Shown one piece after another: positions 102-52,455 of a stretch of 64,000 nt of DNA. Origin of the DNA: an uncultured Poribacteria bacterium (lineage in GTDB: Bacteria; Poribacteria; WGA-4E; WGA-3G); the NCBI GenBank assembly GCA_951813545.1, contig OX638352.1:4736835-4800834 (forward strand), in the 5' to 3' direction. Both the position numbers and the translations under genes were made by a program. Position 1 is the first letter of the stretch, and each line of letters starts with the position of its first letter. Under the pieces are notes generated by a model that saw nothing but the letters and a program-made list of their open reading frames with translations, was not told where the DNA came from and made no database searches.

Positions 102-836
102 TCAATACTGCCAATCTTCATGTGCCAAGGGGGCGCGATTGAGTTCATCGCGATAGGCGCGCCATTGTGGTAGAAACCCGTCCATCAGTGCATGAAACCG
201 ATCGTTATGCCTACGCTCCAGGAGATGCACCATCTCATGCACCAAGATATACACCAGACATAATTCCGGCTTCTTTGCGAGTTCGAGATTGAGCCAGATA
301 CGTTTTGCTTCAATATTGCAAGACCCCCAGAGCGTTTTCATCTTCTTAATCCGTACTTCATTGACCGATACGCCTATTTTCGCCTCCCATTTCTCAAGGA
401 GCGGTGGTAGCTGCGCCCGGAGATGCTGGCGATACCAGCGATGCATCACCGCCTCCCGTGTGTCCCGATCGGAGCTGGGACGGACACTGAGCGCGATCTT
501 TGTGTTGTTGGGTAGCCAGACCTTCGGTGGAACGTCGCGTTCTATGACATCGAGTCGGTAGCGTCGTCCTGAAAGATAGTGGCTCTCGCCTGTTACGAAC
601 TCACGTTGCGATTGCCGATCCTGCTTTGTGAAGTTTGCCTGTTGCCGTTGGATCCAGCCGAGCCGTGAAATGACTGCCATCCGAACGGCGGTGTCGTCAA
701 ATGCTAAAGGTGCTGCTACCCGTACCCGACCGCTCGGTGGATAGACCCCGATGTGTAGGTTCTTGATGTCCTTGCGGATGACCTCTACGGTGATCCCGCG
801 GATGTTGATGTGGGACCTGTCGGTTTTAGTAGTCAT
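102..836 (-). CDS. M48-family / YgjP-like (DUF45) zinc metallopeptidase, commonly linked to type I R-M operons
   Basis: 244-aa ORF with an HExxH motif (VHEMVHL). It overlaps the hsdR stop codon on the same strand. Confidence 0.65.
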   Translation of the reverse strand: MTTKTDRSHINIRGITVEVIRKDIKNLHIGVYPPSGRVRVAAPLAFDDTAVRMAVISRLGWIQRQQANFTKQDRQSQREFVTGESHYLSGRRYRLDVIERDVPPKVWLPNNTKIALSVRPSSDRDTREAVMHRWYRQHLRAQLPPLLEKWEAKIGVSVNEVRIKKMKTLWGSCNIEAKRIWLNLELAKKPELCLVYILVHEMVHLLERRHNDRFHALMDGFLPQWRAYRDELNRAPLAHEDWQY

Positions 837-3800
837 TCTGATTCATCACAAGCTGAAAGATGGCATTGATGTTAAGGTCATCGTAATCACTGAATTCTTC
901 ATCAATCAACCTCGCAATGGCATTACGGACCTCGCGTCGCCTGAACCTGTTGTTTCTCCAGTCGGCTCTTCTCGTTCTGCGGACGGTGTCATCAATTGCA
1001 CGTGCTACCGTCTCTCTACTATCTTCGGGGAGTGTGTCTAAGTTGTCGAAGAGTGCGCGTAATGCGTCTGTATTGATATTGGAGGGGTACCGCTCTTGGT
1101 TTTCTGGCTCGGTGAGCTGCCAGCTGAGTCCTTCGATTTCGGAGAGGTATGCGCGATAATCCAGTCTCTCGTCTCGTCGTCTGCGGATAATGTCATCCAA
1201 CAGACGTGAGATGTGTTCGTAATACCTCGGATTGACCTCAGACCTGTCGACGATGAGCCTACGGATATTGTTTTCTATAGTTGCGGCTGTCGCTGCTTCA
1301 TTGCTGCGAATGCCTTCAGGGAGCAGATCCATCGCTTCAGGACCGTTTTCAACGATCAGTTGGATTAAGGGCGTATCGCCGAGTGTTGAGAGGGTTTCGC
1401 TCTCCTCAGCGCGGATGTATGTATCGATGAGATGCCGCATATCGGGTTCGTATGCCTTCAGGTCGACGTAATCGCCGCTGGCGAGTTTGATCTCTTGGCT
1501 GACGTTTTGGTAGTGCCTGACCTCTTCTTTGATTTCCTGTGCCTCGGCATCGCTATAACCTGCTTCGTTCATTTCGTTGGCGAGGTTGGCGTAAGCCCGC
1601 ACGAATGCGGCTGTGAATTTGTAGAGATTGACGCGTTTCTGCTCGCTGGCTTTGAGTTGTTCGAGATTCCCGTCTTCTCGCGCACAGAAGAAACGGATGT
1701 AAGCGGCGGAATCGCGCGGTGGCTCAACGGGTTCGCACAACGCTTTAACCTTCTCGCGTGTCTCCTCTAAGCGTTCTCTCCCTTTTTCGAGTCTATCCTT
1801 CAACAATCCTTGGACATCCTCGGCATCGAAGTTTTCAAAGGCTTCACCCGTATAGTCGGTAATCGCTTGCTCCAGGGACCGGAAGAGATCTTGATAATCG
1901 ACGATGTAGCCAAATTCCTTGTCCTCCGTGTCGAGGCGATTGACGCGGCAGATGGCTTGGAAAAGCCCGTGATCTTGCATGTGCTTGTCGATGTAGAGAT
2001 AGGTCGCCGGTGGCGCGTCGAAACCCGTGAGGAGCTTATCGACGACAATGAGGAGCTTCATTTCCGCTGGCTGGTTAATAAATTTGTCCTTGGCTTCCCT
2101 CTCAAACTGATCGACTCTATAAATCGCTGTGTTTTCAGGTTCGTCGAAGTAGTCGCCGAGCATCTGGCGGTAGACGTTATATTCTGTTTGTCTGTCGGTG
2201 AGTCCTTCCCCGGTTTCCTCTCTTGCGATGGATTCTGTAGTGGGTCTATAGGAGGTGATGATGGCGCATTTGCCTTTGAGGGGTGTTTCCTGAAAGAGTT
2301 GATAATACCGGCAGGCGGAAAAGATGCTATCGGCGACGAGCATGGCGTTGCCGTTTCCGCTTTTAAGTCTGTCGCGGTTCTCCATGTCAAGGACAATATC
2401 GGCGACGATTTTATCCAAGCGTTCGCGTGAGCTGAGCACATTCTGCATCGTGCTCCACCGCTGTCGGAGCTGTGCTCTTGCGGTGTCGGTGAGTCCCCTG
2501 GTCCTGCTCTCGAACCAGTCGTCGACCTGTTCCTGAGAGGCGAGATCTTGGTTAACGTCGCGTGCCTCGTAACGGAGGTCTAACACGACATCGTCTTCAA
2601 CGGCTTCGTTATACTTGTAGGTGTGGATGTAGGGACCGAAGGTTTCGATGCTGCGTTGCTTGTCGCCTTTCAACAACGGTGTACCTGTGAAACCGATCAG
2701 CATGGCATCAGGGATCAGTTTCTTCATCGCTCTGTGGAGTTTGCCGGATTGGGTGCGGTGGCATTCGTCGACAAAGACGAAAAAATCTCCCCTCGCTTGG
2801 AAGCCGTCGGGTAGATGTTGCTGGATGTCGTCAACGTAGTCGTCATAGCCGTCAATATCGGCATCTTCGTCTGTTATCTCACCTGATCTGCCGAATTTGT
2901 GGACGAGTGAACAGATTAATCGCTCGGCGGTATTCGTGAGGACTTGCAGGAGATGCGCGCCGCTCTGTGTGCGCGTGATGTTTTCGTTGGCACCACTGAA
3001 AACCCCCTCAATTTGTTCGTCGAGTTCGGTGCGGTCAGTGATGATGAGCACGCGTGCACGCGGGTTGGTTTCGAGGATCGATTTTGCGAGCCAGACCATC
3101 GTGAGACTTTTCCCACTGCCCTGGGTGTGCCAGATGATGCCGCCTTCCCTGCGGTCTACGCGTTCTTGCGCTGCTTTCACACCGAAGAATTGGTTGTGTC
3201 GGCAGATTTTCTTGACGTGTCCGTCGAAGACGATGAAGTTGTGTAAGAGATCGAGCATCCGCGCCTTATCGCAGACTTGACTGAGTTCTCGGAGCAGGAA
3301 GCTATCGCCTGCATCGGGGTGGGCATTCGCTTCTTTCCAGCGCAACCAGTGTTTCTCTGGCGTTTTGATGACGCCGTAGTGTAGTCCTTGGCTTTCGCTG
3401 CCCGCCATGACGAGTTGCACGGTGGCGAAAAACCATTCGATGAAGTCTTTGTCTTGGTTGGTAAGGTTCTGGCGGATGCCTGTGGAAACGGAGGTCGTGG
3501 AACGTTTTAGTTCAAGGACGCCGACGGCGATTCCGTTGATGTAGAGGACTAAATCGGGGCGTTTGTTGCCGTACTCGCCTTCGAGGGTCACCTCTTCGGC
3601 GATACTAAAATCGTTATTTTCCGGATTTTTCCAGTCGATCAACTTGACGGTGACCCGGTGTTCACCGGTGCTCGGTTGGACGTTGACACCGTAGCGTAGG
3701 AGTCTGTAGACCTCTCGGTTTGCGTCAATGAGGGTCTTGGTGCCACCGATTGCGGCGGCTTTTTGGAGTGCCTCCACTGCCTTTCTGATGACCTGATCGT

Positions 3801-4158
3801 CGCGCTCTCTGACCCGCAACCAATCGGCAAGCATACGGGTTTCAATGTTGCTATTTCCTTCTCGATCTTGCCAGCGTCCGAGGTAGAGATAGCCGAGTGT
3901 CTCACGGAAGAAGTTGATGACGCGTGCTTGTGTTTGTTTTTCTCTTTCGCCTACGGTGTTCATAGTAGATTTTACAATTAACATTACATCACTGCCCCTG
4001 ATAAGAGGGTAATCTTTGTACCGCAAACTTTCCAGTTCGCGCTCTAAGCCGGTCAATGTTTCTTTATGCCCTCCTGATAAGGGGGTTGGGGGGTTATCCT
4101 GATTCTGACAGAAAACGCGACACACACCAAACACCCTAATCCGCGTCATCAGCGTCAA
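826..4158 (-). CDS. hsdR: Type I restriction enzyme R subunit (HsdR)
   Basis: 1110 aa. Helicase motif I (TQGSGKSLTMV) and DEAD/H-box motif II (VDECHRTQSG). It sits in an operon with hsdS and hsdM. Confidence 0.9.
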   Translation of the reverse strand: MTLMTRIRVFGVCRVFCQNQDNPPTPLSGGHKETLTGLERELESLRYKDYPLIRGSDVMLIVKSTMNTVGEREKQTQARVINFFRETLGYLYLGRWQDREGNSNIETRMLADWLRVRERDDQVIRKAVEALQKAAAIGGTKTLIDANREVYRLLRYGVNVQPSTGEHRVTVKLIDWKNPENNDFSIAEEVTLEGEYGNKRPDLVLYINGIAVGVLELKRSTTSVSTGIRQNLTNQDKDFIEWFFATVQLVMAGSESQGLHYGVIKTPEKHWLRWKEANAHPDAGDSFLLRELSQVCDKARMLDLLHNFIVFDGHVKKICRHNQFFGVKAAQERVDRREGGIIWHTQGSGKSLTMVWLAKSILETNPRARVLIITDRTELDEQIEGVFSGANENITRTQSGAHLLQVLTNTAERLICSLVHKFGRSGEITDEDADIDGYDDYVDDIQQHLPDGFQARGDFFVFVDECHRTQSGKLHRAMKKLIPDAMLIGFTGTPLLKGDKQRSIETFGPYIHTYKYNEAVEDDVVLDLRYEARDVNQDLASQEQVDDWFESRTRGLTDTARAQLRQRWSTMQNVLSSRERLDKIVADIVLDMENRDRLKSGNGNAMLVADSIFSACRYYQLFQETPLKGKCAIITSYRPTTESIAREETGEGLTDRQTEYNVYRQMLGDYFDEPENTAIYRVDQFEREAKDKFINQPAEMKLLIVVDKLLTGFDAPPATYLYIDKHMQDHGLFQAICRVNRLDTEDKEFGYIVDYQDLFRSLEQAITDYTGEAFENFDAEDVQGLLKDRLEKGRERLEETREKVKALCEPVEPPRDSAAYIRFFCAREDGNLEQLKASEQKRVNLYKFTAAFVRAYANLANEMNEAGYSDAEAQEIKEEVRHYQNVSQEIKLASGDYVDLKAYEPDMRHLIDTYIRAEESETLSTLGDTPLIQLIVENGPEAMDLLPEGIRSNEAATAATIENNIRRLIVDRSEVNPRYYEHISRLLDDIIRRRRDERLDYRAYLSEIEGLSWQLTEPENQERYPSNINTDALRALFDNLDTLPEDSRETVARAIDDTVRRTRRADWRNNRFRRREVRNAIARLIDEEFSDYDDLNINAIFQLVMNQNDY

Positions 4159-5374
4159 TCCGCGACTCAGACAACCGCACCCGCCCCGTGAGGAGCTGCT
4201 GCATCATTCCCTGTTTGATGGAAATGGTTTTGTCCCGACGCTGCTCCAACGCCGCAATCTCGGCATCCATATCGGAAAGAATGCGAACGATAGCGTTCTG
4301 TTCTTTGACGCTCGGCATAAGGAAAGTAAAGTTTGCCATGTCCCGTCCATATAAGTGATAGACAGTTGTTCCTGATACAAGTTGCATCACCTGACTATGA
4401 TTTATCTTGATTACGTATGCGAGGAATGTTCCATTGAGGACATCAGCTGGAACGCGAATCACTAAGATATCGCCTCCAAGGATGACATTGGACATTGATA
4501 TACAACTTGCTGTTGCAAGACCATTAGGAGTTACATCCGATCCTGGCATCAGGACATCATTGGAGAGAGAAAGAAAAAACGTTCCTTCTCGATCAGTTCC
4601 ATGTAGAACTTTGGTGATACATTCGTCATAAGTTGTGAATAATTCTCCATAGTGGATACATCGCCTTTTCCCGTCAGGTGATAGGTCCGCTTTCGATAGA
4701 CCTGAGCCTTTAAAAAAAGATGAAATCTCGCCCAATCGCTTCACCTCCCACGCCCCGCTGAACCTAGGCAGGCGCGTCTGACCCGTCAGCAGTTGCTGCA
4801 TGGTGGCTTGCTTGATTGCCTGCTTCTTAGCGATGAGTGCGTCCAAGGCGTTGAGCAACCCATCCACATCCGACAATGCCTCGGCGATGGCGTGTTGTTC
4901 TGAAAGAGGAGGAAGAGGAATCTCAATATTCAGTAGGGTTCCCTTTGTAATTTCCTTAAATGTACTACCACTTGCAAGATCATTTAACTTCTCTTTTATA
5001 TATCTCAAATAGTAGGCGAGAAAGACATTTAATAGCGTCTCATGGCAAATAAAGTTAGCAAACCCTTGATTTGTCGCTATTGGAACGGTAGCGATTGCAG
5101 TTTCGCCAATTGTTGCTCGGCTAGTTAATAAAACTGTTCCCGCTGGTAGTAGTTTTGCAGCACTTTTACCTAATGCTTCTTCTGAAATATGTGTTGCTGT
5201 GTCATCAATGTACAAGGCGGAATCCAAAGCGGTAATGTCAGAAGGGATTGCCCAAGGAATATTGCCTCGAAAATATTTCACCACATCACGCTTTGGTGTT
5301 CCGCCTTTGGCAATCTCTGTTACCTCTCCTAATCTTACTACTTTCCAATGATCCTGTTTTGATTTTGCGCTCAT
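4136..5374 (-). CDS. hsdS: Type I restriction-modification specificity subunit (HsdS)
   Basis: 412 aa with two target-recognition-domain-like halves separated by conserved helical repeats (LLTGQTRLP / LLTGRVRL). It lies between hsdM and hsdR. Confidence 0.8.
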   Translation of the reverse strand: MSAKSKQDHWKVVRLGEVTEIAKGGTPKRDVVKYFRGNIPWAIPSDITALDSALYIDDTATHISEEALGKSAAKLLPAGTVLLTSRATIGETAIATVPIATNQGFANFICHETLLNVFLAYYLRYIKEKLNDLASGSTFKEITKGTLLNIEIPLPPLSEQHAIAEALSDVDGLLNALDALIAKKQAIKQATMQQLLTGQTRLPRFSGAWEVKRLGEISSFFKGSGLSKADLSPDGKRRCIHYGELFTTYDECITKVLHGTDREGTFFLSLSNDVLMPGSDVTPNGLATASCISMSNVILGGDILVIRVPADVLNGTFLAYVIKINHSQVMQLVSGTTVYHLYGRDMANFTFLMPSVKEQNAIVRILSDMDAEIAALEQRRDKTISIKQGMMQQLLTGRVRLSESRIDADDAD

Positions 5375-5429
5375 TAGAGTTCTTCTCCATTGGACTTTAT
5401 GGAAATATGAAAGCGGTAAATTCTTACAC

Positions 5430-7877
5430 TTAGATAGCCCCTATCTTTCTTATATGTTCCAGAACTTTCATGCTATATCCATCCACCTCACGCGACAACG
5501 CTGGCAATGGACTCGCGTAACGCTCCTCTAGTTCTTGGACACGCCCCGTCAGTTCCTGCGTCCCGCGTTGGACTTCACCCTCAATTGCCGATCCGATACT
5601 GGCGAGCCACTTATTCCCAACCACAAGTGTCTTGACTTCGTCCTCAGTAAGCGTCGCATAGCGAGCCAACACCTGTGTATCCAACGCGAGTTGGGCATCT
5701 TTGACTGCCTTGTCCGCTTTCGACTTCATCTCAAGCAGGGATAGGCAGTGTTCAAGGGCATCCTGTTCATCGTCGTTGTCTTGTGTCTCATGTAGCGTTG
5801 TGAGTGCCTTGAGTCGTGCTTTCACACTGCTGGCGGTAATGTTGCCGCTGTCGTTGGTAGCATCGGCGAGCAATCCGTTCTCGCTGGCGTGTTCCTCGAT
5901 GTATTCCTCTAAGGTTTGCACGGCAACTGCCTGTTTCGCTTGCAAGGCTTCAATCGCACCCTGCGCATCTACGAAATAGCGCGCGACGATCAACACCGGT
6001 GGAATCAGATCCATCTTGTATTTGCTTTTTTTGATAACGAGGTCGGGTGTCTCCTTCATCTGCCTATCCTGGATAACCTCACGCGGTTTTGCGGCTTCCA
6101 CCCATCCATCCGTGCCGATGAGATAAACATCGTCCTGCATGACCTCGTCCCAGTAGTCCATGAGTTTCTGATAGACATCATACCGATCAAGTAGAAGCAG
6201 ATCTCTGAAACGGGTGAGGAGGTCTTCCGATAACGTCTCAACGATGTTTCTGGGAACCGTGCCGACATCAATACCGAGCAAGCGTGGTTCGTGTGCCTCG
6301 CGCCATTCGGTAAAGACGGCATCGACGTGATGCTGGTAAACCTTGAATTCGGGATGCGTGAGGATCGTCGTTTTGACATGCTGTGTCTCCACGAGCGGAT
6401 CGCTGTATCCCGGTCTACCGTTGGCTGTGAACAGAGCGTTACGGAGTGTCGGGAAGACCGTCCAATATTTGTCAAGTGCGTCGATATCGGTGTCAGGGAT
6501 GCCTCCGTTGAGGTGTGCGCCGAGGTCGTGGAGATCTTCGGGTTCGCTCGCATCGATATAGCGCGGGATATTGAGATTATAGTCGTTGGCAGGATCGTCA
6601 ATCTCAGAGATGGGTACCATGCGCGAGTAGCACTGCAGTTCTGCGTGCGCATTGAAAACCGATACAATTTTGTGAATATCTTGGGCGCGGAGACGGTTTT
6701 TGTTGCCATCCTTGAGGAACCCTTTGCTGGCGTCTATCATGAAGATACCACTGCGGATGTGAGCGTTCTCTTTGTCAATCACGATAATACAGGCAGGGAT
6801 ACCCGTGCCGTAGAAGAGATTTGCAGGTAGACCGATGATGCCCTTGATATAACGGCGACGGATCAGTTCCCTGCGGATGTCTGCCTCTTTGTTGCCACGG
6901 AAGAGCACACCGTGTGGCAGAATGATCGCGCCTTTGCCTCTGCTTTTCAGGGACGCAACGAAGTGGAGTAAGAAGGCGTAATCGCCATTTTTCGCTGGCG
7001 GGGTACCGTATTCAAAGCGGTCGTAGGTGTCGTTACCGGGATCAGAGTCGAATCCGTTGGTCCAGGCTTTATCGGAGAATGGCGGGTTGGCGACAGCGAA
7101 ATCGAAGGTTTGGAGCCTGTCATCGTCCGTGAAAGCGGGTGCGACAAGCGTGTTACCGTGCTTTATGTCCGCACCGGCGTTGTCATGGAGGATCATGTTC
7201 ATGGACGCCAGGGCGAAGGTGGCATTGTCCTTTTCCTGTCCGTAAATACTCAACCCGTCCGGTGCTTCGTCGTCGGTTCGCAGTAGGAGTGAACCCGAAC
7301 CGCACGTCGGGTCATAGATCGTTTTATCCCGCCGGGTATCGGGACCGATACCGATCACTTTCGCCATGACGCGCGAGACTTCCGCGGGCGTGTAAAATTG
7401 TCCTTTGCTTTTGCCGGATTCAGTGGCGAAGTGGCGCATGAGGTATTCGTAAGCGTCACCTAAGAGGTCGTCGCCTTCCACTCGGTTGGCTCGGAAATCG
7501 AGGCTCTCAAAGATGGCGACCAGTTTCGAGAGCCGATCCTGCATTTCTTTGCCTCTGCCGAGTTTGCTGTCGTCGTTGAAATCAGCCTGATCGATGATGC
7601 CTTTGAGATCATTATTTTCTTCCGCGAGTCTCCCGATGATCTTGTTGATTTTGTCGCCGATCTCCTTGTCGCCGAGGCATGCAACCATATCCGCGAATCC
7701 GCCGCCTTCCGGAACAACGATTTCTGTGTAGTGATTATTGTCGGCTTTGTCGGAGACGTATTTCATGAAAAGGAGCGTTAGGATGTAGTCTTTGTATTGC
7801 GAGGCATCCATCCCGCCGCGGAGTTCGTCGCAGCTTTGCCACAGCGAAGCGTAAAGTTGCGATTTCTTTATTGCCAT
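5430..7877 (-). CDS. hsdM: Type I R-M N6-adenine DNA methyltransferase (HsdM), long form with a ~300-aa C-terminal extension
   Basis: N-terminal HsdM_N-like region, a GSGS SAM-binding motif and an NPPF catalytic motif (VANPPFSDKAW). At 815 aa it is longer than the ~500-aa canonical form. Confidence 0.88.
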   Translation of the reverse strand: MAIKKSQLYASLWQSCDELRGGMDASQYKDYILTLLFMKYVSDKADNNHYTEIVVPEGGGFADMVACLGDKEIGDKINKIIGRLAEENNDLKGIIDQADFNDDSKLGRGKEMQDRLSKLVAIFESLDFRANRVEGDDLLGDAYEYLMRHFATESGKSKGQFYTPAEVSRVMAKVIGIGPDTRRDKTIYDPTCGSGSLLLRTDDEAPDGLSIYGQEKDNATFALASMNMILHDNAGADIKHGNTLVAPAFTDDDRLQTFDFAVANPPFSDKAWTNGFDSDPGNDTYDRFEYGTPPAKNGDYAFLLHFVASLKSRGKGAIILPHGVLFRGNKEADIRRELIRRRYIKGIIGLPANLFYGTGIPACIIVIDKENAHIRSGIFMIDASKGFLKDGNKNRLRAQDIHKIVSVFNAHAELQCYSRMVPISEIDDPANDYNLNIPRYIDASEPEDLHDLGAHLNGGIPDTDIDALDKYWTVFPTLRNALFTANGRPGYSDPLVETQHVKTTILTHPEFKVYQHHVDAVFTEWREAHEPRLLGIDVGTVPRNIVETLSEDLLTRFRDLLLLDRYDVYQKLMDYWDEVMQDDVYLIGTDGWVEAAKPREVIQDRQMKETPDLVIKKSKYKMDLIPPVLIVARYFVDAQGAIEALQAKQAVAVQTLEEYIEEHASENGLLADATNDSGNITASSVKARLKALTTLHETQDNDDEQDALEHCLSLLEMKSKADKAVKDAQLALDTQVLARYATLTEDEVKTLVVGNKWLASIGSAIEGEVQRGTQELTGRVQELEERYASPLPALSREVDGYSMKVLEHIRKIGAI

Positions 7878-8107
7878 ACCTGAATCCTTTCTTGTGATAT
7901 TGACAGCAATATACCAAAGGCGGCCGATTAAGTCAACAGGTTCCTGCTTTATACCGGAGCCGTTCAGTTTTTAGTTTTTTGTCGGTTATACGGGGAACTA
8001 AGTTGAAATCGGAGTGTTTTGCTTGGGTGTTTCTGCGGATTTCCGCCCCTCTTACAGAACGCGGAGGGCGAGGTTCCAAACCTCGTCAGCGGCAAGCAAG
8101 TGCCGAG

Positions 8108-8169: not shown

Positions 8170-9225
8170 CTACCAATCCTCATCAAAGAACGGTGTGCTT
8201 GGGTAACTGTAGACGTTGCCCTCGTAATTGCGGAGTTGAATTTCATCATCGTCGAAGGTGACAACTGGATCGGGGATCAGTGCGATTTTTCCACCACCAC
8301 CGGGAGCATCGACGACATAATGCGGCACACCAAGCCCAGATATGTGTCCACGCAACGCTTCGACAATGTCTAATCCCGTCTTTACTGCTGTTCGGAAATG
8401 GTCGGTTCCTACGACGAGATCTGCTTGATAGATGTAGTAGGGCTTAACCCGGATTCGTAACAACCCTTTCATTAGTTCCACCATTACAGCGGGATCGTCG
8501 TTCACACCTTTCAGGAGGACGGTCTGATTACCGAGCGGTATGCCTGCATCGGCTAACATGCCACATGCCTTTTCAGTCTCAGGTGTGATTTCGCGTGGAT
8601 GGTTGAAGTGGGTGTTGATGTAAAAAGGGTGGTTCCGTTTCAAAATTGCACACAACTCTGGGGTAATGCGTTGGGGCAACGTTACTGGGACGCGTGAACC
8701 GATTCGGATGATTTCTAAATGTTCAATTGCCCGTAATCCGCCGACAATCATCTCGATTTTTTTATCCGTTAGCATGAGCGGATCGCCACCTGAGATAATG
8801 ACATCACGGATCTCTGAATGTGCTTGGATGTAGGCAAGCCCTCTCTCAATGTTATTTTCAGAGATCGAATGCGGGTCGCCAACTTTCCGTTTGCGGGTAC
8901 AGAAGCGACAATAGATTGGGCACATATAGTTGACATAAAAGAGTGCCCGATCTGGGTATCGGTGCGTAACGTTTGGTACTTCGCTATCGTCTTCTTCGTG
9001 GAGTGGGTCCTCTACACCGGTGCTAATCAACTCTTTTGGGTCGGGAACGACCTGTTTCCAAATCGCGTCGCCCGGTTTTTCTATGAGACTAAGATAATAC
9101 GGGTTGATGCGGATCGGAAATTCTTTATGAATGCGCCGCATCTCTTCTAAGTCAACATCAAATGCAGCGGCAAGTTTTTCTGGCGTGTTGACAGTATCTC
9201 TAACAAGACGTTTCCATTCTTCCAT
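8170..9225 (-). CDS. KamA-family radical SAM protein (lysine 2,3-aminomutase / EpmB-like)
   Basis: 351 aa. CxxxCxxC cluster CPIYCRFCTRKRKVG, typical of the KamA family. Confidence 0.75.
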   Translation of the reverse strand: MEEWKRLVRDTVNTPEKLAAAFDVDLEEMRRIHKEFPIRINPYYLSLIEKPGDAIWKQVVPDPKELISTGVEDPLHEEDDSEVPNVTHRYPDRALFYVNYMCPIYCRFCTRKRKVGDPHSISENNIERGLAYIQAHSEIRDVIISGGDPLMLTDKKIEMIVGGLRAIEHLEIIRIGSRVPVTLPQRITPELCAILKRNHPFYINTHFNHPREITPETEKACGMLADAGIPLGNQTVLLKGVNDDPAVMVELMKGLLRIRVKPYYIYQADLVVGTDHFRTAVKTGLDIVEALRGHISGLGVPHYVVDAPGGGGKIALIPDPVVTFDDDEIQLRNYEGNVYSYPSTPFFDEDW

Positions 9226-9318
9226 CGATTATGTCCATCCTTTCCAAATTTCCGCTGTTATGCTTGTTGCTCCGTAGGCGCGGTGCAACGTGAGAAACTC
9301 GTGAGCACTGCTTTGTTT

Positions 9319-9435
9319 TATAGTAAAGCCCATAATTATCTATCCATCAACCAAAGGGCGAGGATACAATCCTCGCCAGCGGTGGTGAGGGTTTTTTGTT
9401 TCCCAAATGTTAACTTATTTTCAGACTTTACTATA
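9319..9435. mobile_element. MITE-like ~117-bp element, copy A
   Basis: 11-bp terminal inverted repeats (TATAGTAAAG ... CTTTACTATA). Internal perfect 9-bp GC hairpin GGCGAGGAT-ACA-ATCCTCGCC followed by a T-run. It is near-identical to the copy at 44346..44463. Confidence 0.45.
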
Positions 9436-9466
9436 AGACTGTGGTGCGCGGAATTGATGAGATGTG

Positions 9467-10000
9467 CTACGGTGCTTCCGTGTAGTTCTCAATTGTTACC
9501 TTGTTCATTACATCACGTTCGCGTAGGGCATCTACTACATCCATTCCTTCAATAACCTTTCCGAATGTGGTATAGCTGCCGTTAAGATGTGCGTAAGGGC
9601 TTGGATCTGAACTGATACAGATATAAAACTGGCTTCCAGCGGAGTCAGGGTTCTGTGTCCGTGCCATAGCGACGACACCTTTTTCATGAGCTGGCATCTT
9701 TTCACGAAGGTCGGGGTCTTGGAATTCTCCCGGAATTGTCCATCCCGGTCCGCCTCTACCTGTCCCTTGTGGGTCGCCCCCTTGAATAACAAAACCGGGG
9801 ACATGCCGGTGAAAAATCACGCCATCATAATATCCGGTTTGGATCAACTGCGCGAAGTTTGCCACTGTGGCTGGAGCGGCTTCCGGATAAAGTTCAATAA
9901 TAATGTTTCCTTTTTCGGTTTCAATCGTTACATTGGGTAATTGATCAGTATTGCATGAGACAATCGCCGCGAAACACGCGCCTAATAAGCTAAATCGCAT
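9467..10000 (-). CDS. Peptidyl-prolyl cis-trans isomerase, cyclophilin type (PpiB-like), lipoprotein/secreted
   Basis: 177 aa. N-terminal signal with Cys (LLGACFAAIVSC). Cyclophilin motifs HRHVPGFVIQGGDP and FGKVIEGMDVV. Confidence 0.85.
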   Translation of the reverse strand: MRFSLLGACFAAIVSCNTDQLPNVTIETEKGNIIIELYPEAAPATVANFAQLIQTGYYDGVIFHRHVPGFVIQGGDPQGTGRGGPGWTIPGEFQDPDLREKMPAHEKGVVAMARTQNPDSAGSQFYICISSDPSPYAHLNGSYTTFGKVIEGMDVVDALRERDVMNKVTIENYTEAP

Positions 10001-26139: not shown

Positions 26140-26175
26140 AAAAAAGGCGGGGTTAGAAACCCCGCCAGTAAAAAA
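26140..26175 (-). terminator. Rho-independent terminator after the Gfo/Idh gene at 26209..27294
   Basis: GGCGGGGTT-AGA-AACCCCGCC hairpin (26146..26166), flanked on the minus strand by TTTTTTC. Confidence 0.6.
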
Positions 26176-26208: not shown

Positions 26209-27294
26209 CTAAATCTCAGGCACTCTCACCGCAATCTCTTTACCGGCTGCATGCGAACGGAAAATACCGTCCATAATCACGTTCGTGAGAAGCACACCCT
26301 CCGGCGGTATTGGGGACGGAGCATCCGCTTTAACCGCTTCACGGAACGCTGTCATCTGGGCTGCCCAGTTATCTTCTTGTGGGAATCCTGAGAACTGGAT
26401 CGTCGTCATCCCTTCCGGTGGGTTTGGTTCCGCTGTTAATCCCTCGGATTCGACAAACTTTTTGAGATCACCATCATACGCATCGGCATAGACAACCGGT
26501 CCATTCAATGAGAAACCCGCTTTCGTCCCAAGATGGAAGTTGCCACCGAGGGAGTCCTGATGCACTGCCCAAGAGATTTTGAACACCATCACACCACCAT
26601 TTTCAAACCGCACCCACGCCGCACCGAACTCCTCAACATCCATGATACCACGGAACCTCGGATCCTGCTGCGAGATGTAATCCTCAGTGATAGCGGAGAC
26701 ACGCACTGGTTTTGGATACCCCATCGCATACAGCGAAGCATGCATATTATAGACACCGATATCGACGGTTGCACCAGCACCTGCTGTCTTCTTATAGATG
26801 AACGTATGTCCTGGGTTCCCGCGCCGCCTGCACCCTGCAGATTCAGAGTAGTAGATATCGCCGAATAACCCGGCATCAAACGCCTTTCTTATGAATTGGA
26901 GTCTCGGGCTAAATGTCGGATTGAGACCGATTTGTAAGATTTTGCCCGATGCTTTCGCCGCTCGGGTCATCGCGGTCGCATCTGGAAGTGTCGCCGCCAT
27001 CGGTTTTTCACAGAGGACGTGTTTACCGGCGTTCAATGCTGCCACTGTCGGTCGCCGATGCCCCTGATTGTAAGTGCAGACACTCACTGCATCAAGTTCG
27101 TCCATTTCGAGCATCTTGTTGTAGCTTGAAAAAGCGTTCTGTTTCGGGACACCCCACTCTTTAGCGGCTTGATTTGCCTTACTTTTGATGATGTCACAGA
27201 CCGCAATGATCTCAAAACCGCCTACTTTCTCGTAGGTGCTCTGGTGCGCACGTGAAATGCCACCTGTACCAATAATACCAACCTTGACAGTCAT
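26209..27294 (-). CDS. Gfo/Idh/MocA-family NAD(P)-dependent oxidoreductase
   Basis: N-terminal Rossmann VGIIGTGGISRAH; 361 aa. Confidence 0.85.
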   Translation of the reverse strand: MTVKVGIIGTGGISRAHQSTYEKVGGFEIIAVCDIIKSKANQAAKEWGVPKQNAFSSYNKMLEMDELDAVSVCTYNQGHRRPTVAALNAGKHVLCEKPMAATLPDATAMTRAAKASGKILQIGLNPTFSPRLQFIRKAFDAGLFGDIYYSESAGCRRRGNPGHTFIYKKTAGAGATVDIGVYNMHASLYAMGYPKPVRVSAITEDYISQQDPRFRGIMDVEEFGAAWVRFENGGVMVFKISWAVHQDSLGGNFHLGTKAGFSLNGPVVYADAYDGDLKKFVESEGLTAEPNPPEGMTTIQFSGFPQEDNWAAQMTAFREAVKADAPSPIPPEGVLLTNVIMDGIFRSHAAGKEIAVRVPEI

Positions 27295-27342: not shown

Positions 27343-28428
27343 CTAAATTTCCGGCACTCTCACCGCAACCTCTTTTCCAGTCTCATGCGAACGGAATATG
27401 CCTTCCATAATTACATTTGTGAGAAGTACACCTTCGGGAGGTATCGGCGATGGTGCATCTGCCTTAACGGCTTCACGGAACGCGGTCATCTGTGCTTCCC
27501 AGACATTGACCGCTGGGAATCCTGAGAACCGGATCGTCGTCATTCCATCCGGCGGGTTCGGCTCTGCTGTCAATCCTTCCGATTTAACCAGTTTCTTGAG
27601 GTCATCCGTATAGGCATCGGCATAGACGACTGGTCCATCCAAGGAGATACCCATTTCTTTACCGAGACAGAAACTGGGACCGAGCGAATCCTGATGAATC
27701 GCCCAAGAGATTTTGAACACCATCACGCCACCGTCTTCAAACCGCACCCACGCGACACCGAACTCTTCAACATCCATAATCCCTCGAAATTGTGGATCTT
27801 GCTGCGAGATGTAGTCTTCAGTAATAGCAGAGACACGCACGGGTTTTGGATACCCCATCGCATACAGCGAGTTGTGCATATTGTAGACACCGATGTCTAC
27901 AATCGCACCAGCGCCCGCCGTCTTTTTGTAGATGAACGTGCGTCCCGGATTTCCACGCCGTCTGCCACCTGAAGACTCGGAGTAGTAGATGTCGCCGAGC
28001 AGTCCTTCATCGATTACCTTCTTCGCAAATTGGAGTCCCGGATTAAACGTGCTGTGGATACCGATCTGCAGGATTTTGCCCGACGCTTTTGCTGCCCGGA
28101 CCATCGCGGTCGCATCTGGGAGCGTCGCTGCCATCGGTTTCTCACAGAAGACATGTTTGCCAGCATTCAACGCTGCCACTGTCGGTCGCCGGTGTCCTTG
28201 GTTGTAAGTACAAACACTCACCGTGTCGATTTCGTCCATCTCAAGCATCTTGTTGTAACTGGTGAAGACGTGCTTTCTCGGTACACCCCACTGATCGGCG
28301 GCTTCGTTTGCCTTGCTTTTGATGATGTCGCAGACTGCAACGATCTCGAAACCGCCTACTGCCGTGTAAGATCGCTGGTGCGCCCGTGAGATACCGCCTG
28401 TACCCACAATACCGACTCGAATCGTCAT
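27343..28428 (-). CDS. Gfo/Idh/MocA-family oxidoreductase, tandem paralog
   Basis: 361 aa, co-linear with 26209..27294 and about 80-85% identical by eye. It carries the same motifs. Confidence 0.85.
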   Translation of the reverse strand: MTIRVGIVGTGGISRAHQRSYTAVGGFEIVAVCDIIKSKANEAADQWGVPRKHVFTSYNKMLEMDEIDTVSVCTYNQGHRRPTVAALNAGKHVFCEKPMAATLPDATAMVRAAKASGKILQIGIHSTFNPGLQFAKKVIDEGLLGDIYYSESSGGRRRGNPGRTFIYKKTAGAGAIVDIGVYNMHNSLYAMGYPKPVRVSAITEDYISQQDPQFRGIMDVEEFGVAWVRFEDGGVMVFKISWAIHQDSLGPSFCLGKEMGISLDGPVVYADAYTDDLKKLVKSEGLTAEPNPPDGMTTIRFSGFPAVNVWEAQMTAFREAVKADAPSPIPPEGVLLTNVIMEGIFRSHETGKEVAVRVPEI

Positions 28429-37124: not shown

Positions 37125-37436
37125 TCTGACCGTAAAGCCAAAACATTCCGCTCTTATGTTCTCGCCTTTAAGGTGCGAATATAAGAGCGTTTTTTATGGA
37201 TGAATAGCATCTGCCTATAGTGCTCAAGAATGGCAAATCAAGTCGGGAATCGGAGTTCCCTCCTACGGGTGTGTAAATATTTTGGCAGCGTTCCCTTATA
37301 GAGCGGTTTTACGCCGACAGCCCCTCGTCAACGTACATAGCACTCCGCTGGAGTGCTATGTAAACAAACCGGTCCTATCAAAAAAATTAAGGAAACCGTG
37401 ACAAAAACTTTACACACTTCCCTCCTACAGAGGTTC

Positions 37437-37963: not shown

Positions 37964-39270
37964 AGCAGCTTACATGTTTATTTATTGCCCTATTTGCTAT
38001 AGCAGTCGTGCAGGCGCAATTCGCAAGTGCCGATGAATGGCACCAGTGGCGTGGTGAAAACCGGGAAGGCGTTTGGAACGAAACAGGTATCATCGAAAAA
38101 TTTGAAGGTGAGGAGATTCCACTTCGGTGGCGCGTTCCTATCGGAAGTGGCTATAGCGGACCGAGTGTTGCTGATGGACGCGTGTACGTCACAGACAGGC
38201 TCACAAAGCCAAAACAGGTTGAACGCGTTCACTGCTTCGATTGGGAAACAGGCGAATCACTCTGGTCTTACACCTACGATTGTGTCTATAAAATAGACTA
38301 TACAGCGGGACCGCGTGCAAATGTTACCATTCATGATGGACTCGCTTACGCTTTAGGGTCGATGGGACATCTACACTGTTTCGATGCCGTTACTGGAGAC
38401 ATCATCTGGAAAAGAGATCTCAATGCCGAATATAACATTAATATGCCGATTTGGGGCATCGCGTGCGCACCTATTGTTGAGGGTGAAAACCTGATCGTTC
38501 AAATCGGCGGAAAGCCGAACGCTTGTATCGTTGCATTTGATCGGAAAACGGGTGAGGAGAAGTGGAAAGCGTTAGACGACAACGCCTCTTATTCGGCACC
38601 GATTGTCATTACGCAAGCGGGTGAACGCGTCTTAATTTGCTGGACGGGTGCTAACATCACCGGACTTAATCCGCAAACTGGAAAAGTACACTGGCTTTAT
38701 CCGTTTCCACCGGAAAGTTTTGAGATCGCTATTGCGACACCTATTTTCAATCAGAATGAATTGTTTGTCACAGAATTCCGTCAAGGATCTCTTCTCCTGA
38801 AGCTGCCACCGGATAAGTTGGCTGCAGAACTCGGCTGGCACCGTAAGGGAAAAAACGAACAGAATACCGACGCCCTTCAGACGACAATGGCGACACCTGT
38901 CCGTTTGGGGGATTACATCTATGGGGTGGATAGTTATGGAGAACTCCGCTGTTTAGATGCAGGAAACGGGGATCGGATTTGGGAAGACCTCACCGCTGTG
39001 CGGAAAGCACGCTGGAGCAATATCCATTTCGTCAGTCATCCAGTGGCATCGGATAACAGAGTATGGATGTTTAACGAACATGGCGAACTTCTCATCACGG
39101 AACTCTCTCCCGACGGACTAAATATTATCAGTCGCGCCAAACTAATCGAACCGACGCGCGACCAATTGAACCGAAGGGGCGGCGTTACGTGGGCGCATCC
39201 TGCGTTTGCCTATAAGCACGTCTTCGCACGAAACGACAAAGAACTCGTTTGTGCCAATTTAGAAAAATAG
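37960..39270 (+). CDS. PQQ-like beta-propeller repeat protein (BamB-like fold), secreted
   Basis: Signal peptide. WHQWRGENREGVWNE N-terminus and repeated hydrophobic-W/G-x-D propeller blades. Confidence 0.7.
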   Translation: MKQLTCLFIALFAIAVVQAQFASADEWHQWRGENREGVWNETGIIEKFEGEEIPLRWRVPIGSGYSGPSVADGRVYVTDRLTKPKQVERVHCFDWETGESLWSYTYDCVYKIDYTAGPRANVTIHDGLAYALGSMGHLHCFDAVTGDIIWKRDLNAEYNINMPIWGIACAPIVEGENLIVQIGGKPNACIVAFDRKTGEEKWKALDDNASYSAPIVITQAGERVLICWTGANITGLNPQTGKVHWLYPFPPESFEIAIATPIFNQNELFVTEFRQGSLLLKLPPDKLAAELGWHRKGKNEQNTDALQTTMATPVRLGDYIYGVDSYGELRCLDAGNGDRIWEDLTAVRKARWSNIHFVSHPVASDNRVWMFNEHGELLITELSPDGLNIISRAKLIEPTRDQLNRRGGVTWAHPAFAYKHVFARNDKELVCANLEK

Positions 39271-39888
39271 TGGGTTTCTTCTTTTTAGCCAAAGATCGAG
39301 AGCCTGAAACGAAGTGAAAGGGTTTTTGCTTGGGGGTTTCTTCAGATCTACGTAAAAGAATGTTAAATCCCAAACTATACTAACCGAACCACAAGGAATA
39401 ATTAAGAATAGCGGGTTTCTTTTTTTTACCCAAAGATCGTGAGCCTGAAACGAAGTGGAGGGCGGATCTACGTAAAAGAACGTTAAATCCCAAACCATAC
39501 TAACCGAACCGCAAGGAACAATTAAGAATAGCGGGTTTCTTCTTTTTAGCCAAAGATCGCGAGCCTGAAACGAAGTGGAGGGCGGATCTACGTAAAAGAA
39601 CGTTAAATCCCAAACCATACTAACCGAACCGCAAGGAACAATTAAGAATAGCGGGTTTCTTCTTTTTAGCCAAAGATCGCGAGCCTGAAACGAAGTGGAG
39701 GGCGGATCTACGTAAAAGAACGTTAAATCCCAAACCATACTAACCGAACCGCAAGGAATAATTAAGAATAGCGGGTTTCTTCTTTTTAGCCAAAGATCGC
39801 GAGCCTGAAACGAAGTGGAGGGCGGATCTACGTAAAAGAACGTTAAATCCCAAACTATACTAACCGAACCGCAAGGAATAATTAAAAT
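39269..39888. repeat. Tandem repeat, 5 units of ~120 bp (first unit 141 bp), filling the whole PQQ-M16 intergenic region
   Basis: Unit AGCGGGTTTCTTCTTTTTAGCCAAAGATCGCGAGCCTGAAACGAAGTGGAGGGCGGATCTACGTAAAAGAACGTTAAATCCCAAACCATACTAACCGAACCGCAAGGAACAATTAAGAAT. Unit boundaries at 39410, 39530, 39650 and 39770. Units 3 and 4 are identical. The array ends 1 nt before the ATG at 39889. Confidence 0.9.
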
Positions 39889-42882
39889 ATGGAAACAACT
39901 CGGACACCAGAGGTAAACTTACGTCCCGGCGAACAACTTCACGGCTTTGAGGTGAAAGCCGTTACACCGATCGACGAATTGCGAGCAGTGACAATTGAAT
40001 TGGCACACCAACATAGCGGTGCCCGCCTGCTACATCTCTATACAAACGATACGGAAAATCTCTTCTCCATTAATTTCCCGACCCCGCCATCAGACGATAC
40101 CGGCGTACCCCATATTCTTGAACATGCTGTTTTGGCAGGCTCACACAAATTTCCGGTTAAAGAGCCCTTCTTTGAAATGATTAAAATGAGCATGGCAACA
40201 TTTATTAACGCCATGACAAGTGCCGATTTTACATGCTATCCGGTATCAAGCAACGTAAAAAAAGACCTTTTCAACTTGGCAGAAGTTTACTTTGACGCGG
40301 TCTTCCATCCACTACTGACCGAAAATACTTTCAAGCGTGAAGGACATCATCTCGCACCCGTCGATCCGGATGACCCTACAGGCGATTTAAAGATAACGGG
40401 TATCGTCTATAATGAGATGAAAGGCGCATTCTCAGATCCTGAAGCTCGGTTATATCGATCAATGACATGTCAACTCCTTCCAGATACGCTTTACGCATGT
40501 GAATCCGGCGGCGATCCAGATGCCATTCCGGATTTGACCTACGCGCAGCTCAAAGGATTTCATGAAACCTATTATCACCCAAGCAACGGCTATTTCGTTC
40601 TGTACGGGGACATTCCGACGAGCGACTATCTCACGTTCCTCGCCGATAAGTTAGATAAAATCCCAAAGAATGCTGCGAGTGCCTCTCTACGACCGCTAAG
40701 CCCGGAGGTCACACACCAACCGAAGTGGGATGCGCCACGGGCTGTAACGGATACCTACCCTGTCGGCGCAGATGAAGCACTCACAGAAAAAACATATATG
40801 ATGCTCAGTTGGTACATCGGAGAAGCGACCAAACCGGAAGCAGTTGTTTTAGGACGCATTTTGAGCCTTATACTGCTTGGCAATGAAGCCGCACCGCTCC
40901 GTAAAGCGATAATCGATTCCAAACTCGGTGCAGACCTCATCTATTCCGGTGCCAGTTCCATCGGACCCGCAGCTACTTTTCACGTTTCCCTCAAAGGGAG
41001 CGAAGTCGATCGCGTTGAAGCCTTCACACAACTCGTCACCGATACCCTAACAGCGATTGCGAATTCAGAGATTAATAACGAAAAGGTGGAAGCAGCGTTC
41101 CAACAAGCGACATACTATTACCAAGAAGTCGCTTCAATGTTCCCGCTCCGCATGCTCTACCGTGTCATTGAAGGCTGGATATATGAAAAAGATTCGGACA
41201 CCTTCCTAAAGATGGGAAAAACGCTGACTGATGTTCGTCAGCAGTGGCTGGAAAATCCATCAATTTTCAACGACTTCATCCGCGAGCATCTCATTGAGAA
41301 TCCACATCGTCTGACAAGTGTGTTGTCTCCTGATCAGGACATGCAGGCGAAAATGGATGCTGAACTCGCCGAACGGATGAAAGAGACACGGACACAACTC
41401 ACTGATGAAGAGGTACGGCAAATCGCCGCTGATGCTGCGGAACTCGAACGCCTCAACGGCGTCCCCAATTCGCCGGAAGCACTCGCAAATCTGCCACAAC
41501 TCCAAGTCAGCGATCTTCCCGATAAACCGAAACATTTTCCGAGAACAGTCGAAAATGTCGGTGGTCGGGATCTGCTCCGCAGCGATGTTTTTGCCAATGG
41601 TGTTAACTACCTTGTGCTCAACTTCAATTTACACGGGTTACCACAGCACCTCTGGACCTATCTACCCAGATATGCTGACGCTATTAGCAAACTCGGTGCC
41701 GCTGATATGAGTTATGAAGAGATGGCACAGCGGACATCTGCCGTCACCGGTGGTATTGGATGCTCACCGTGGTTTTCTACACACACACTCGATGCCAATC
41801 GTTCCATGCAGAGTATATCCTTTCACCTCAAAGCACTCGATGGGAAAATGGATGCCGCGCTCGATGTCTTGCACGATTTACTGTTTGCTGTGAACCCACG
41901 CGATACGGAACGCCTCCGGGACGTACTGGTTCAAGCGGTTGCAGAATATCAGACAGAAATGATCCACGACGGCTCAAGTACTGCGGTTCATCACGCTTCA
42001 CGTGGACTTTCGTCGAATGCGCATCTCGCCGAAATCATCTATGGTCTACCCCAACTCCGCAACAGCGAAACGCTCTTCAACGATTTTGACGAACTTCATA
42101 CCGACCTTATGGGTCATATAGAAGGAGTTCGCGATTTCCTGCTAACCCGTGAACGGGTGACCGCCAGCTTCACCGGTTCGGATACCGCTTTTGAAACGAC
42201 GCGAACCAAACTCGGTGAGTGGCTTGACGCGATGCGGAACGAGCCTGTTATTTCAGAACCGATTGCGTTCCAGCAGTTTGATACACCACCGAGAGAGGGA
42301 TTAGCCGGTCCCATTCAGATTGCGCATTGTGCGCATGTAATGCCGGCACCGCACTACTCCGATCCGGATTCAACGCTGCTGACGATCGGGGCGCATCTCA
42401 TTCGACTGGATTACATACTGAGTGAAATCCGCTTTAAAGGCAACGCTTATGGTGCCAGATTCAGCTATAGTCCTTATGACGCAGTCCTGTGTCAATCCTC
42501 GTATCGCGACCCACACGTCGCACGCACGATCAACGTCTTCGAGCAAACCGTTGATTACGTTAAACAGGTGGAATGGACACAAACAGACATAGACCGCGCG
42601 ATTATTGCTACGGCAAAAGATGGTGAGAAACCGATGCGTCCAGGTTTAGCTGCGAGAGAGGCACTGAGTCAACATCTTGTGGGGCAGACGCGCGAGATGC
42701 GAGAGGAACGCTACGCGCAACTCCGACGTGCCACCCCTGCTGAGGTGAAACGCGCGCTCCTTCAACTTTTAGAGGGAAACCGAGATAAAGCCGCGGTGTG
42801 TGCCGTTTCCAGTCGTGAAAAACTGGAAGCCGCAAACAGTGAATTAGCACAACCGCTTGTCATTGAGGATATTTTATCCTAA
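39889..42882 (+). CDS. M16C-family zinc metallopeptidase (PreP/pitrilysin-like)
   Basis: 997 aa. Inverted zinc motif HILEHAVLAGS (HxxEH) and downstream NEMKG glutamate. Length is typical of M16C. Confidence 0.8.
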   Translation: METTRTPEVNLRPGEQLHGFEVKAVTPIDELRAVTIELAHQHSGARLLHLYTNDTENLFSINFPTPPSDDTGVPHILEHAVLAGSHKFPVKEPFFEMIKMSMATFINAMTSADFTCYPVSSNVKKDLFNLAEVYFDAVFHPLLTENTFKREGHHLAPVDPDDPTGDLKITGIVYNEMKGAFSDPEARLYRSMTCQLLPDTLYACESGGDPDAIPDLTYAQLKGFHETYYHPSNGYFVLYGDIPTSDYLTFLADKLDKIPKNAASASLRPLSPEVTHQPKWDAPRAVTDTYPVGADEALTEKTYMMLSWYIGEATKPEAVVLGRILSLILLGNEAAPLRKAIIDSKLGADLIYSGASSIGPAATFHVSLKGSEVDRVEAFTQLVTDTLTAIANSEINNEKVEAAFQQATYYYQEVASMFPLRMLYRVIEGWIYEKDSDTFLKMGKTLTDVRQQWLENPSIFNDFIREHLIENPHRLTSVLSPDQDMQAKMDAELAERMKETRTQLTDEEVRQIAADAAELERLNGVPNSPEALANLPQLQVSDLPDKPKHFPRTVENVGGRDLLRSDVFANGVNYLVLNFNLHGLPQHLWTYLPRYADAISKLGAADMSYEEMAQRTSAVTGGIGCSPWFSTHTLDANRSMQSISFHLKALDGKMDAALDVLHDLLFAVNPRDTERLRDVLVQAVAEYQTEMIHDGSSTAVHHASRGLSSNAHLAEIIYGLPQLRNSETLFNDFDELHTDLMGHIEGVRDFLLTRERVTASFTGSDTAFETTRTKLGEWLDAMRNEPVISEPIAFQQFDTPPREGLAGPIQIAHCAHVMPAPHYSDPDSTLLTIGAHLIRLDYILSEIRFKGNAYGARFSYSPYDAVLCQSSYRDPHVARTINVFEQTVDYVKQVEWTQTDIDRAIIATAKDGEKPMRPGLAAREALSQHLVGQTREMREERYAQLRRATPAEVKRALLQLLEGNRDKAAVCAVSSREKLEAANSELAQPLVIEDILS

Positions 42883-44345: not shown

Positions 44346-44463
44346 TATAGTAAAACCTACAATTAATTAGACATTGTAGAAGGGCGAGGATACAATCCTC
44401 GCCAGCGGTGGTGCGGTGTTTTGTGTTTTCCAAAGTGCCCTCTTATTTTCGGGTTTTACTATA
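44346..44463. mobile_element. MITE-like ~118-bp element, copy B
   Basis: Perfect 11-bp TIRs TATAGTAAAAC (44346..44356) and GTTTTACTATA (44453..44463). Same internal hairpin GGCGAGGATACAATCCTCGCC and following AGCGGTGGTG..GTTTT tract as copy A. It is inserted 1 nt after the stop codon at 44342..44344. Confidence 0.45.
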
Positions 44464-44469
44464 GTTATC

Positions 44470-47580: not shown

Positions 47581-47605
47581 GCTTTCATAATTTGAGGAGA
47601 AAACA

Positions 47606-50005: not shown

Positions 50006-50026
50006 GGCGGGGTTTTTAACCCCGCC
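50006..50026. terminator. GC hairpin between convergent genes; weak terminator
   Basis: GGCGGGGTT-TTT-AACCCCGCC. The stem is identical to the terminator at 26146..26166. There is no strong T-run on either side. Confidence 0.4.
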
Positions 50027-52386: not shown

Positions 52387-52455
52387 CTGGAAGTCGGGCT
52401 TCGGAAATCCTTTCTACAGGAAAACTGAATCCTCCGAAGCAGCAGACAAAAACAC

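Follow-up and report, generated by a model that had tools for sequence, protein, structure and literature searches.

Two repeats of about 117 bp in the window (the whole 64-kb stretch of Poribacteria DNA analysed here) are very probably copies of a MITE that inserts at TA and is dispersed in Poribacteria genomes. The element is of an ordinary kind, belonging to a family that is apparently undescribed. The original prediction, made from the letters of the window, had already read these repeats as a non-autonomous mobile element, and this reading is now strongly supported by an empty site with TA duplication at one locus, by a spacer that is empty in relatives at the other, and by many dispersed copies. 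To our knowledge, Poribacteria, which are symbionts of sponges, have not been cultured and are documented by metagenomes only.

Copies of the element in the window

The copies, their hairpins and possible remnants in the window are:

9319..9435, plus strand: MITE copy A, 117 bp including the flanking TA (9319-9320 and 9434-9435)
44346..44463, plus strand: MITE copy B, 118 bp, consisting of a 114-bp element plus TA at 44346-44347 and 44462-44463
9357..9377, unstranded: central perfect hairpin of copy A, GGCGAGGAT-ACA-ATCCTCGCC, then AGCGG
44383..44403, unstranded: central perfect hairpin of copy B, with the same sequence as the hairpin of copy A
59918..~60008, plus strand: third, decayed copy, TATGGTA subfamily
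3961..3990, plus strand: possible left-arm remnant (weak call), CATAGTAGATTTTACAATTAACATTACATC

Copies A and B contain the same four parts in the same order, as originally described, including the 9-bp-stem hairpin in both. They match the family profile, which was built from 28 copies, with nhmmer E-values of 8e-28 and 2e-29, respectively, and are 79-82% identical to each other when aligned over the full length. Their similarity ends at TATAGTAAA on the left and at TTTACTATA on the right. A 34-nt core (AAGGGCGAGGATACAATCCTCGCCAGCGGTGGTG) is identical in the two copies, and a 32-nt core pattern gave no matches in shuffled sequence. The 64 kb contain exactly four occurrences of TATAGTAAA, one at each end of copies A and B; the chance expectation is 0.17, and none of 100 shuffles reached four.

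Copy A is flanked by genes for a radical-SAM/LAM_C (lysine-aminomutase-like) protein (8170-9225, minus strand) and a cyclophilin PPIase (9467-10000, minus strand), and is antisense to both. Copy B is located between convergent genes encoding a PQQ_2 beta-propeller (plus strand) and a short-chain dehydrogenase (SDR, minus strand). It starts 1 nt after the TAA stop of the PQQ_2 beta-propeller ORF (42992-44344), the position that had been predicted.

The original count of two full copies holds, with the addition of the third, decayed copy at 59918-~60008 (nhmmer E=6e-9, model positions 1-78; also a left-arm pattern match). It has an intact left arm, a mutated hairpin (GGCGAGGTTACAAATCTCGCT) and a shortened right arm that ends in TTTACCGCG. 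The remnant at 3961-3990 is a pattern match with one mismatch that adjoins the likely start codon of the 826..~3963 minus-strand gene, and a search with the family profile gave no nhmmer report for it at E<0.01.

Anatomy of the family

The family core is about 114 bp and non-coding. Copies are 115-119 bp in length, with variants of 123-137 bp, and differ from each other by single-nucleotide indels; therefore, there is no conserved reading frame. The TA at either extremity belongs to the duplicated target rather than to the element, and the ends with the target TA are written here as TA-TAGTAAAG...CTTTACTA-TA, where TATGGTGAA is a variant. The terminal inverted repeats, predicted to be 11 bp, are present but longer: a perfect terminal stretch of 10-13 bp is followed by an imperfect extension to ~27 bp (TAGTAAAGYCNAYAATTAC.T.GACA), and positions 20-28 form a conserved inner block in addition to the terminal one. 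The inner block reads TTGGACA, TTATACA or TTAGACA and changes in step at both ends (G:C vs U:A, 10 vs 8 sequences). Matched changes at both ends also separate subfamilies, TATAGTAAA...TTTACTATA versus TATGGTGAATTAT...ATAATTCACCATA.

The centre is occupied by a perfect hairpin, GGCGAGG(A/T)T-NNN-A(T/A)CCTCGCC, followed by AGCGG and a G-rich run. Pair 8 of the hairpin switches between A:T and T:A (15 vs 12 sequences). One copy (L013:1374-1492) keeps both arms of the TATAGTAAA MITE around an unrelated centre.

Copy number and distribution

A scan of one genome per species with the pattern GGCGAGG-N7-CCTCGYCAGCGG returned at least 106 stretches. Among the matches listed, 86 hairpin matches are in Poribacteria loci or in MAGs with the same repeats, and the other 29 are in coding-like sequence of ~70% G+C from unrelated genomes, as expected by chance; ~53 of the 86 listed Poribacteria matches lie inside the TATAGTAAA...TTTACTATA element. 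A profile search of the fetched loci identified full-length copies in at least 18 species-representative Poribacteria genomes. At least 22 copies are present in the 152 kb sampled from CBDFHD01, including copies that were not selected by the hairpin pattern. Copies at distant loci of one genome share 94-100% identity (the copy at L039 equals that at L082, and the copy at L072 equals that at L090, ~3.8 Mb apart), and these near-identical copies are the mark of recent activity. A left-arm scan of viral contigs gave 24 matches, all of which are chance matches by profile score.

Insertion sites and decay

The copy B locus was compared with five independent assemblies of relatives (L200, L201, L202, L203 and L205, one of them a 6-Mb contig), which were found via orthologues of the PQQ protein with 97, 91, 88 and 87% identity. 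Alignment shows that the element is absent from all five. The relatives read GCAGAGTAAT-TA-GTTATCAGTCG (...GAGTAAT-TA-GTTATC...), whereas the window reads GCAGAGTAAT-TA-(TAGTAAAACC...GGTTTTACTA)-TA-GTTATCAGTCG, and the filled and empty sites align exactly. Thus, copy B corresponds to a 116-bp insertion with a duplicated TA. The spacer between the PQQ and SDR genes is 96-103 nt in the five relatives, compared to 212 nt in the window. The insertion of copy B is recent and lineage-specific.

These empty sites came from more distant orthologues rather than from exact-protein matches. Exact-protein look-ups of the flanking genes retrieved only near-identical strains, all of which carry the elements. 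At least six assemblies with an identical flanking SDR protein have the spacer length of the window, and five of these span the site and give a full-length family match there. Proteins identical to the flanking ones are found in ENA and Logan metagenome assemblies, and those homologues that come with a source name are assigned to Candidatus Poribacteria.

At the copy A locus, the synteny of the PPIase and radical-SAM genes is kept in relatives (radical-SAM protein 94-96% identical). The spacer between the two genes measures 110 nt in L112, 63 nt in L114, and 277 nt in L115/L116, where it contains a different repeat; none of these spacers matches the family profile. Conversely, a truncated copy is found upstream of the PPIase gene in L112, at a spacer that holds no copy in the window. 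The TA duplication is defined by filled/empty comparison at one locus, copy B, the copy A spacers being too diverged for base-level junctions.

Both the target-site duplication and the empty sites in related strains that the original prediction had proposed looking for are therefore found at copy B. The same prediction held that a conserved regulatory element would be indicated if only these two copies existed and orthologous loci in relatives carried the same sequence; instead, copies are numerous and the orthologous loci differ.

All 32 copies analysed in this respect have TA at both ends (about 32-50 copies overall). Insertions are in AT-rich intergenic sites, and the preferred target is WWT-TA-AWW, with T at -1 in 27 of the 32, A at +1 in 25, and A/T at the second and third positions of either flank. 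Direct repeats exceeding the TA in length were not found beyond chance in the flanks of these copies.

Signs of decay include truncated copies, internal tandem duplications and one copy into which an IS3 has inserted. In the last case (L085 2592-3900), an IS3-family element (orfA plus an rve-type orfB) lies inside a MITE copy and separates its left portion (3903-3980) from its right portion (2616-2672). MITE copies with internal tandem duplications were observed at L027 7127-7301, L093 5440-5617 and L076 ~5543-5639; these duplications have a 58-60-nt period comprising the hairpin and the adjacent arm, and form arrays of 2-3 hairpins.

Transposition and the search for a transposase

The MITE would be mobilized in trans: a DDE transposase would bind the two inverted repeats, cut at TA with a 2-nt stagger and thereby duplicate the TA. 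The enzyme would most likely be of the IS630/Tc1-mariner type, because of the TA duplication, which is the sole basis for this assignment. Insertion at TA with TA duplication, at a symmetric TTAA-like target, is the classical IS630/Tc1-mariner signature. The end-matched changes of the subfamilies suggest co-evolving transposase specificities.

An autonomous IS with matching terminal inverted repeats, which the original prediction had envisaged, was not found in the ~1.4 Mb of fetched DNA, where all fetched loci were searched for TIR-like end pairs 600-3000 bp apart enclosing a transposase. The candidates that emerged were rejected as parent elements. One consists of two adjacent MITEs, that in L080 encloses a NIPSNAP-like gene, that in L021 comprises duplicated secreted-protein genes, and that in L085 is the IS3 located inside a MITE copy. 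Also rejected was the 680-bp repeat of OX639992 (see below), with inverted repeats of its own and no ORF.

Six-frame translations of the fetched loci and the window contain no IS630-type motifs (YSPxxNxxE, DNxxxH), in a sample that is small and biased to MITE neighbourhoods. A somewhat unlikely alternative is that the MITE is mobilized by a TA-duplicating transposase outside the IS630/Tc1-mariner group, for example of the IS5 family (IS427/ISL2 subgroup) or the IS30 family. The missing IS630-type signature in all fetched loci speaks for such an enzyme, as does a second MITE family (see below) that derives from an IS701-family IS, which implies that IS4/IS5/IS701-like enzymes are present in the lineage. 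The IS5 subgroups IS427 and ISL2, as well as IS30, make 2-3-bp duplications. However, all of the about 32-50 copies have TA at either end, their target is symmetric and TTAA-like, and the absence of the enzyme from a small sample biased to MITE surroundings is weak evidence. The family points to an active TA-specific transposase yet to be found.

The central hairpin as a separate module

The central hairpin is, judging from its occurrences, a module separate from the MITE. Hairpins of the form GGCGRGG-N5-9-CCYCGYC occur five times in the window, compared to 0.01 expected. Those without the rest of the element are:

8067..8092, plus strand: solo hairpin module, GGCGAGGTTCCAAACCTCGTCAGCGG, without inverted-repeat arms
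26146..26166, unstranded: variant solo hairpin, GGCGGGGTTAGAAACCCCGCC, whose stem carries a compensatory A:T to G:C change
50006..50026, unstranded: variant solo hairpin, GGCGGGGTTTTTAACCCCGCC, between convergent genes

The first of these had been taken for a degenerate relative of the element at 8065..8092; the hairpin is real, but it starts at 8067 and is a free-standing module rather than a decayed element. The hairpin at 50006, like that at 26146, displays a compensatory A:T to G:C change. On the minus strand, the hairpin at 26146..26166 is followed by TTTTTT and lies downstream of the gene at 26209-27294 (minus strand), an arrangement that resembles a terminator. The hairpin at 50006..50026 is followed on the minus strand by AACGGAGGG (compare AGCGGTGG in the MITE).

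The 26-nt unit consisting of the hairpin and AGCGG is solo in ~10-12 of the 86 Poribacteria matches listed, and is also found in tandem. In ~11 of the matches listed, the hairpin is at the centre of members of a second MITE family, which are ~95 bp long and whose ends are unrelated (AGGACTTACGCA...TGCGTAAGTCCT). The ends of this second family match an IS701-family IS on L001 (18273-19364, contig end), which has a 337-aa transposase (NF049921, 378 bits) and the ends TAGGACTTACGCA / TGCGTAAGTCCTA; no GGCGAGG-type hairpin is found near the ends of this parent. The hairpin cassette is also internal to a non-coding repeat of OX639992 (~680-790 bp), which has 38-nt terminal inverted repeats (GGTGCGGTTAGGAAACCGCACCATAGGTGTCAATTTAG), contains no transposase-like ORF, and is present in at least three copies with 98% identity (L038 1803-2591, L073, and L087 5802-6488). 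The repeat in the PPIase-rSAM spacer of L115/L116 (~2272-2415) is a different MITE, a longer hairpin-less element of ~145 bp whose AGGACTTAC ends match these in diverged form.

The cassette is unusually conserved across species and common to unrelated repeats, which a purely selfish-element view does not explain. Its sharing by two MITE families may be due to recombination, REP-like capture or selection for hairpin function. One reading, which we consider doubtful, is that the hairpin with AGCGG is an independent REP-like unit, recognized by a protein of the host or by a transposase (possibly of the RAYT type), that propagated by itself before it ended up in several MITE families through capture or insertion, making the 117-bp element a composite. 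The four settings of the 26-nt unit (solo, in the TATAGTAAA MITE, in the second, IS701-ended MITE, and in the 680-bp repeat) would fit such an origin, as would the L013 copy, with the same arms and a different centre, and the IS701 parent, with no such hairpin near its ends. Recombination between MITEs could, however, also give the sharing, and the conserved tag of the hairpin is AGCGG (CCGCT on the other strand), rather than the GTAG or CGTC tag of known REP superfamilies (PMC3733652). It is more doubtful still that the hairpin-AGCGG cassette is a functional unit (for protein binding, termination/processing, or REP-like) that is perfectly conserved and was captured independently by at least two MITE families whose transposases are unrelated, the present TA-type and the IS701-derived type. 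If true, Poribacteria MITEs would be vehicles spreading one regulatory hairpin across genome and phylum. That MITE families of different parentage have one cassette in common is a modest but real curiosity as regards the assembly of bacterial MITEs.

Folding of the element and its possible effect on neighboring genes

The whole element folds with z-scores of -3.9 to -4.9, both strands equally well. Among one-sided pair changes, G:U is as frequent as A:C, and thus neither strand is favored. The orientation of 32 copies relative to neighboring genes is co-directional in 10, opposite in 9, convergent in 6 and divergent in 4, and nearly all copies are intergenic. The tail of the hairpin on the reverse strand is weakly T-rich (CTTTGGTT on the minus strand of copy A; TCTTTAG in most copies). 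A consensus scan for promoters created by the TATAGT ends, outward or inward, found none at copy A and a chance-level result at copy B.

Copy B is followed by a 93-nt near-perfect hairpin of CAGTYRT heptads (44464-44556, -40 kcal/mol, z=-8), which lies between the convergent PQQ and SDR genes and is kept in all relatives with or without the MITE. This hairpin is separate from the MITE and predates the insertion of copy B. Similar heptad-rich stretches are also found beside repeats in L081 and L112.

Co-option of the MITE, with the hairpin or the whole stem-loop transcript acting as a terminator or as an mRNA-stabilizing/processing signal for neighboring genes, is unlikely in our estimate. The hairpin is perfect (9 bp, 6 of them G:C), and the weak T-rich tail flagged by the consensus scan in copy A is on the strand of the flanking genes. 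The solo hairpin at 26146, nearly identical to it, precedes a TTTTTT run downstream of a gene and is suggestive in the same way, as are the compensatory changes in the hairpin (A:T to T:A at pair 8, 15 vs 12 sequences; A:T to G:C in solo units) and the folding of the whole element at z of about -4 to -5 on either strand. Yet there is no orientation or position bias with respect to genes, the tail is only TCTTTAG in most copies, and covariation in a palindrome is equally expected at the DNA level. Moreover, relatives do without the element at both the copy A and copy B loci, and at copy B the -40 kcal/mol hairpin is already present in MITE-less relatives. A terminator role for the MITE, which the original prediction had proposed in addition to mobility, appears unsupported as judged from these features, being neither needed nor indicated, and any effect of copies A and B on transcription would probably be a by-product.

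Rfam gave no matches at the gathering score over the whole window, and an E-value search of 9250-9500 returned only PVX_3, a chance match at 11.7 bits compared to a threshold of 42. Given this lack of an Rfam match and the absence of strand bias among wobble pairs, an RNA gene is unlikely. The suggestion that the element is a small structured RNA gene, or a cis-regulatory RNA kept for its fold rather than mobile, is largely refuted and very improbable: the stable fold (z -3.9 to -4.9) and the compensatory changes in terminal stem and hairpin would suit it, but the insertion is precise with TA duplication, the element is absent at orthologous sites, its two strands fold equally, G:U and A:C changes are equally frequent (symmetric, as for inverted repeats), its orientation is random with respect to genes, and truncated and IS-disrupted copies exist.

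Other repeats and variable regions of the window

Approximately ten tandem copies of a 31-nt unit (TCGGGAATCGGAGTTCCCTCCTACAGAAGAG) occupy 47298-47610, just upstream of a pterin-4a-dehydratase-like gene, and single units are located at 37241-37266 and 52392-52417. On the other strand (CTGTAGGA-GGGAACTCCGATTCCC), the unit is a GTAG-tagged palindrome resembling a REP/BIME array. In another Poribacteria genome (L039, L069), the unit lies directly beside MITE copies. A 120-nt repeat is present in five tandem copies (88-97% identical), which extend from 39263 to 39944 and reach over the start of a 997-aa M16 peptidase ORF at 39889. Two adjacent 361-aa ORFs on the minus strand (26209-27294 and 27343-28428), 80% identical over 300 nt, look like tandem paralogues.

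The region 826-7877, downstream of the radical-SAM gene, contains a type I restriction-modification methylase gene (hsdM, 5430-7877) and its neighbors. Over the 2.2 kb that it covers, contig L003 continues past the radical-SAM gene in the same way as the window. L001/L002 (11184-12218), with an identical radical-SAM protein, contain YgjP-like and Band_7 genes in place of the hsdM region. The region 826-7877 is a strain-variable island with a boundary near the solo hairpin at 8067.

Comparison with known systems

The MITE family marks strain-level insertion polymorphism, may partly explain breaks in short-read assemblies of these genomes, and flags intergenic sequence that is not to be mistaken for sRNA genes or regulatory motifs. 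A search for literature on Poribacteria with MITE or IS630 gave nothing relevant among the papers searched.

The RAYT-associated REP/REPIN/BIME sequences are palindromes of 20-40 bp with a GTAG or CGTC tag at one end. The hairpin resembles them as a GC-rich palindrome of 21-26 nt that is found solo, in tandem and in mosaic repeats. In contrast to these, it has no GTAG/CGTC tag, and inverted repeats and a TA duplication are features of the 117-bp element that REPINs are not known to have. The BOX elements of pneumococcus are modular, with conserved ends and an exchangeable centre, as here, and are not known to have a defined TA duplication or parent IS. The Stowaway MITEs of eukaryotes, which are derived from Tc1/mariner, are small and non-autonomous, with TA duplication, short inverted repeats and AT-rich targets; their hosts are eukaryotic, and the comparison is by mechanism only, with no homology implied. 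The inverted repeat of Correia elements also starts with TATAG.

Bacterial MITEs are shorter than 200 bp; they have inverted repeats with 5'-TA-3' termini, duplicate the target site, and give transcripts that fold into long stem-loops (PMC2229807). The Poribacteria family has the corresponding small size (<200-300 bp), non-coding character, terminal inverted repeats, target-site duplication and dispersed polymorphic copies (Delihas 2008, PMC2229807); of the features of the class, a cognate IS is the one not found in the ~1.4 Mb of fetched DNA. The Correia/NEMIS elements of Neisseria are likewise non-coding and ~100-155 bp long, with inverted repeats of ~24-26 bp, 5'-TA-3' termini, a target-site duplication, many intergenic copies, a long stem-loop transcript and no established cognate transposase (PMC2229807). 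They differ in their host phylum and in having an IHF site, whereas the Poribacteria element has a central GC hairpin, and the likeness, as with RUP and ERIC, is architectural only. RUP of pneumococcus, which is derived from IS630-Spn1, is 107 bp long, has inverted repeats, inserts at TA, and is present in ~100 intergenic copies, with inferred mobilization in trans by an IS630-family transposase (PMC2229807). In contrast to the present family, the parent IS of RUP, with matching inverted repeats, is known, and RUP is found in one species, compared to at least 18 for the Poribacteria family. The element is thus a Correia/RUP-like bacterial MITE in architecture and behavior, and represents a new family of a well-known kind.
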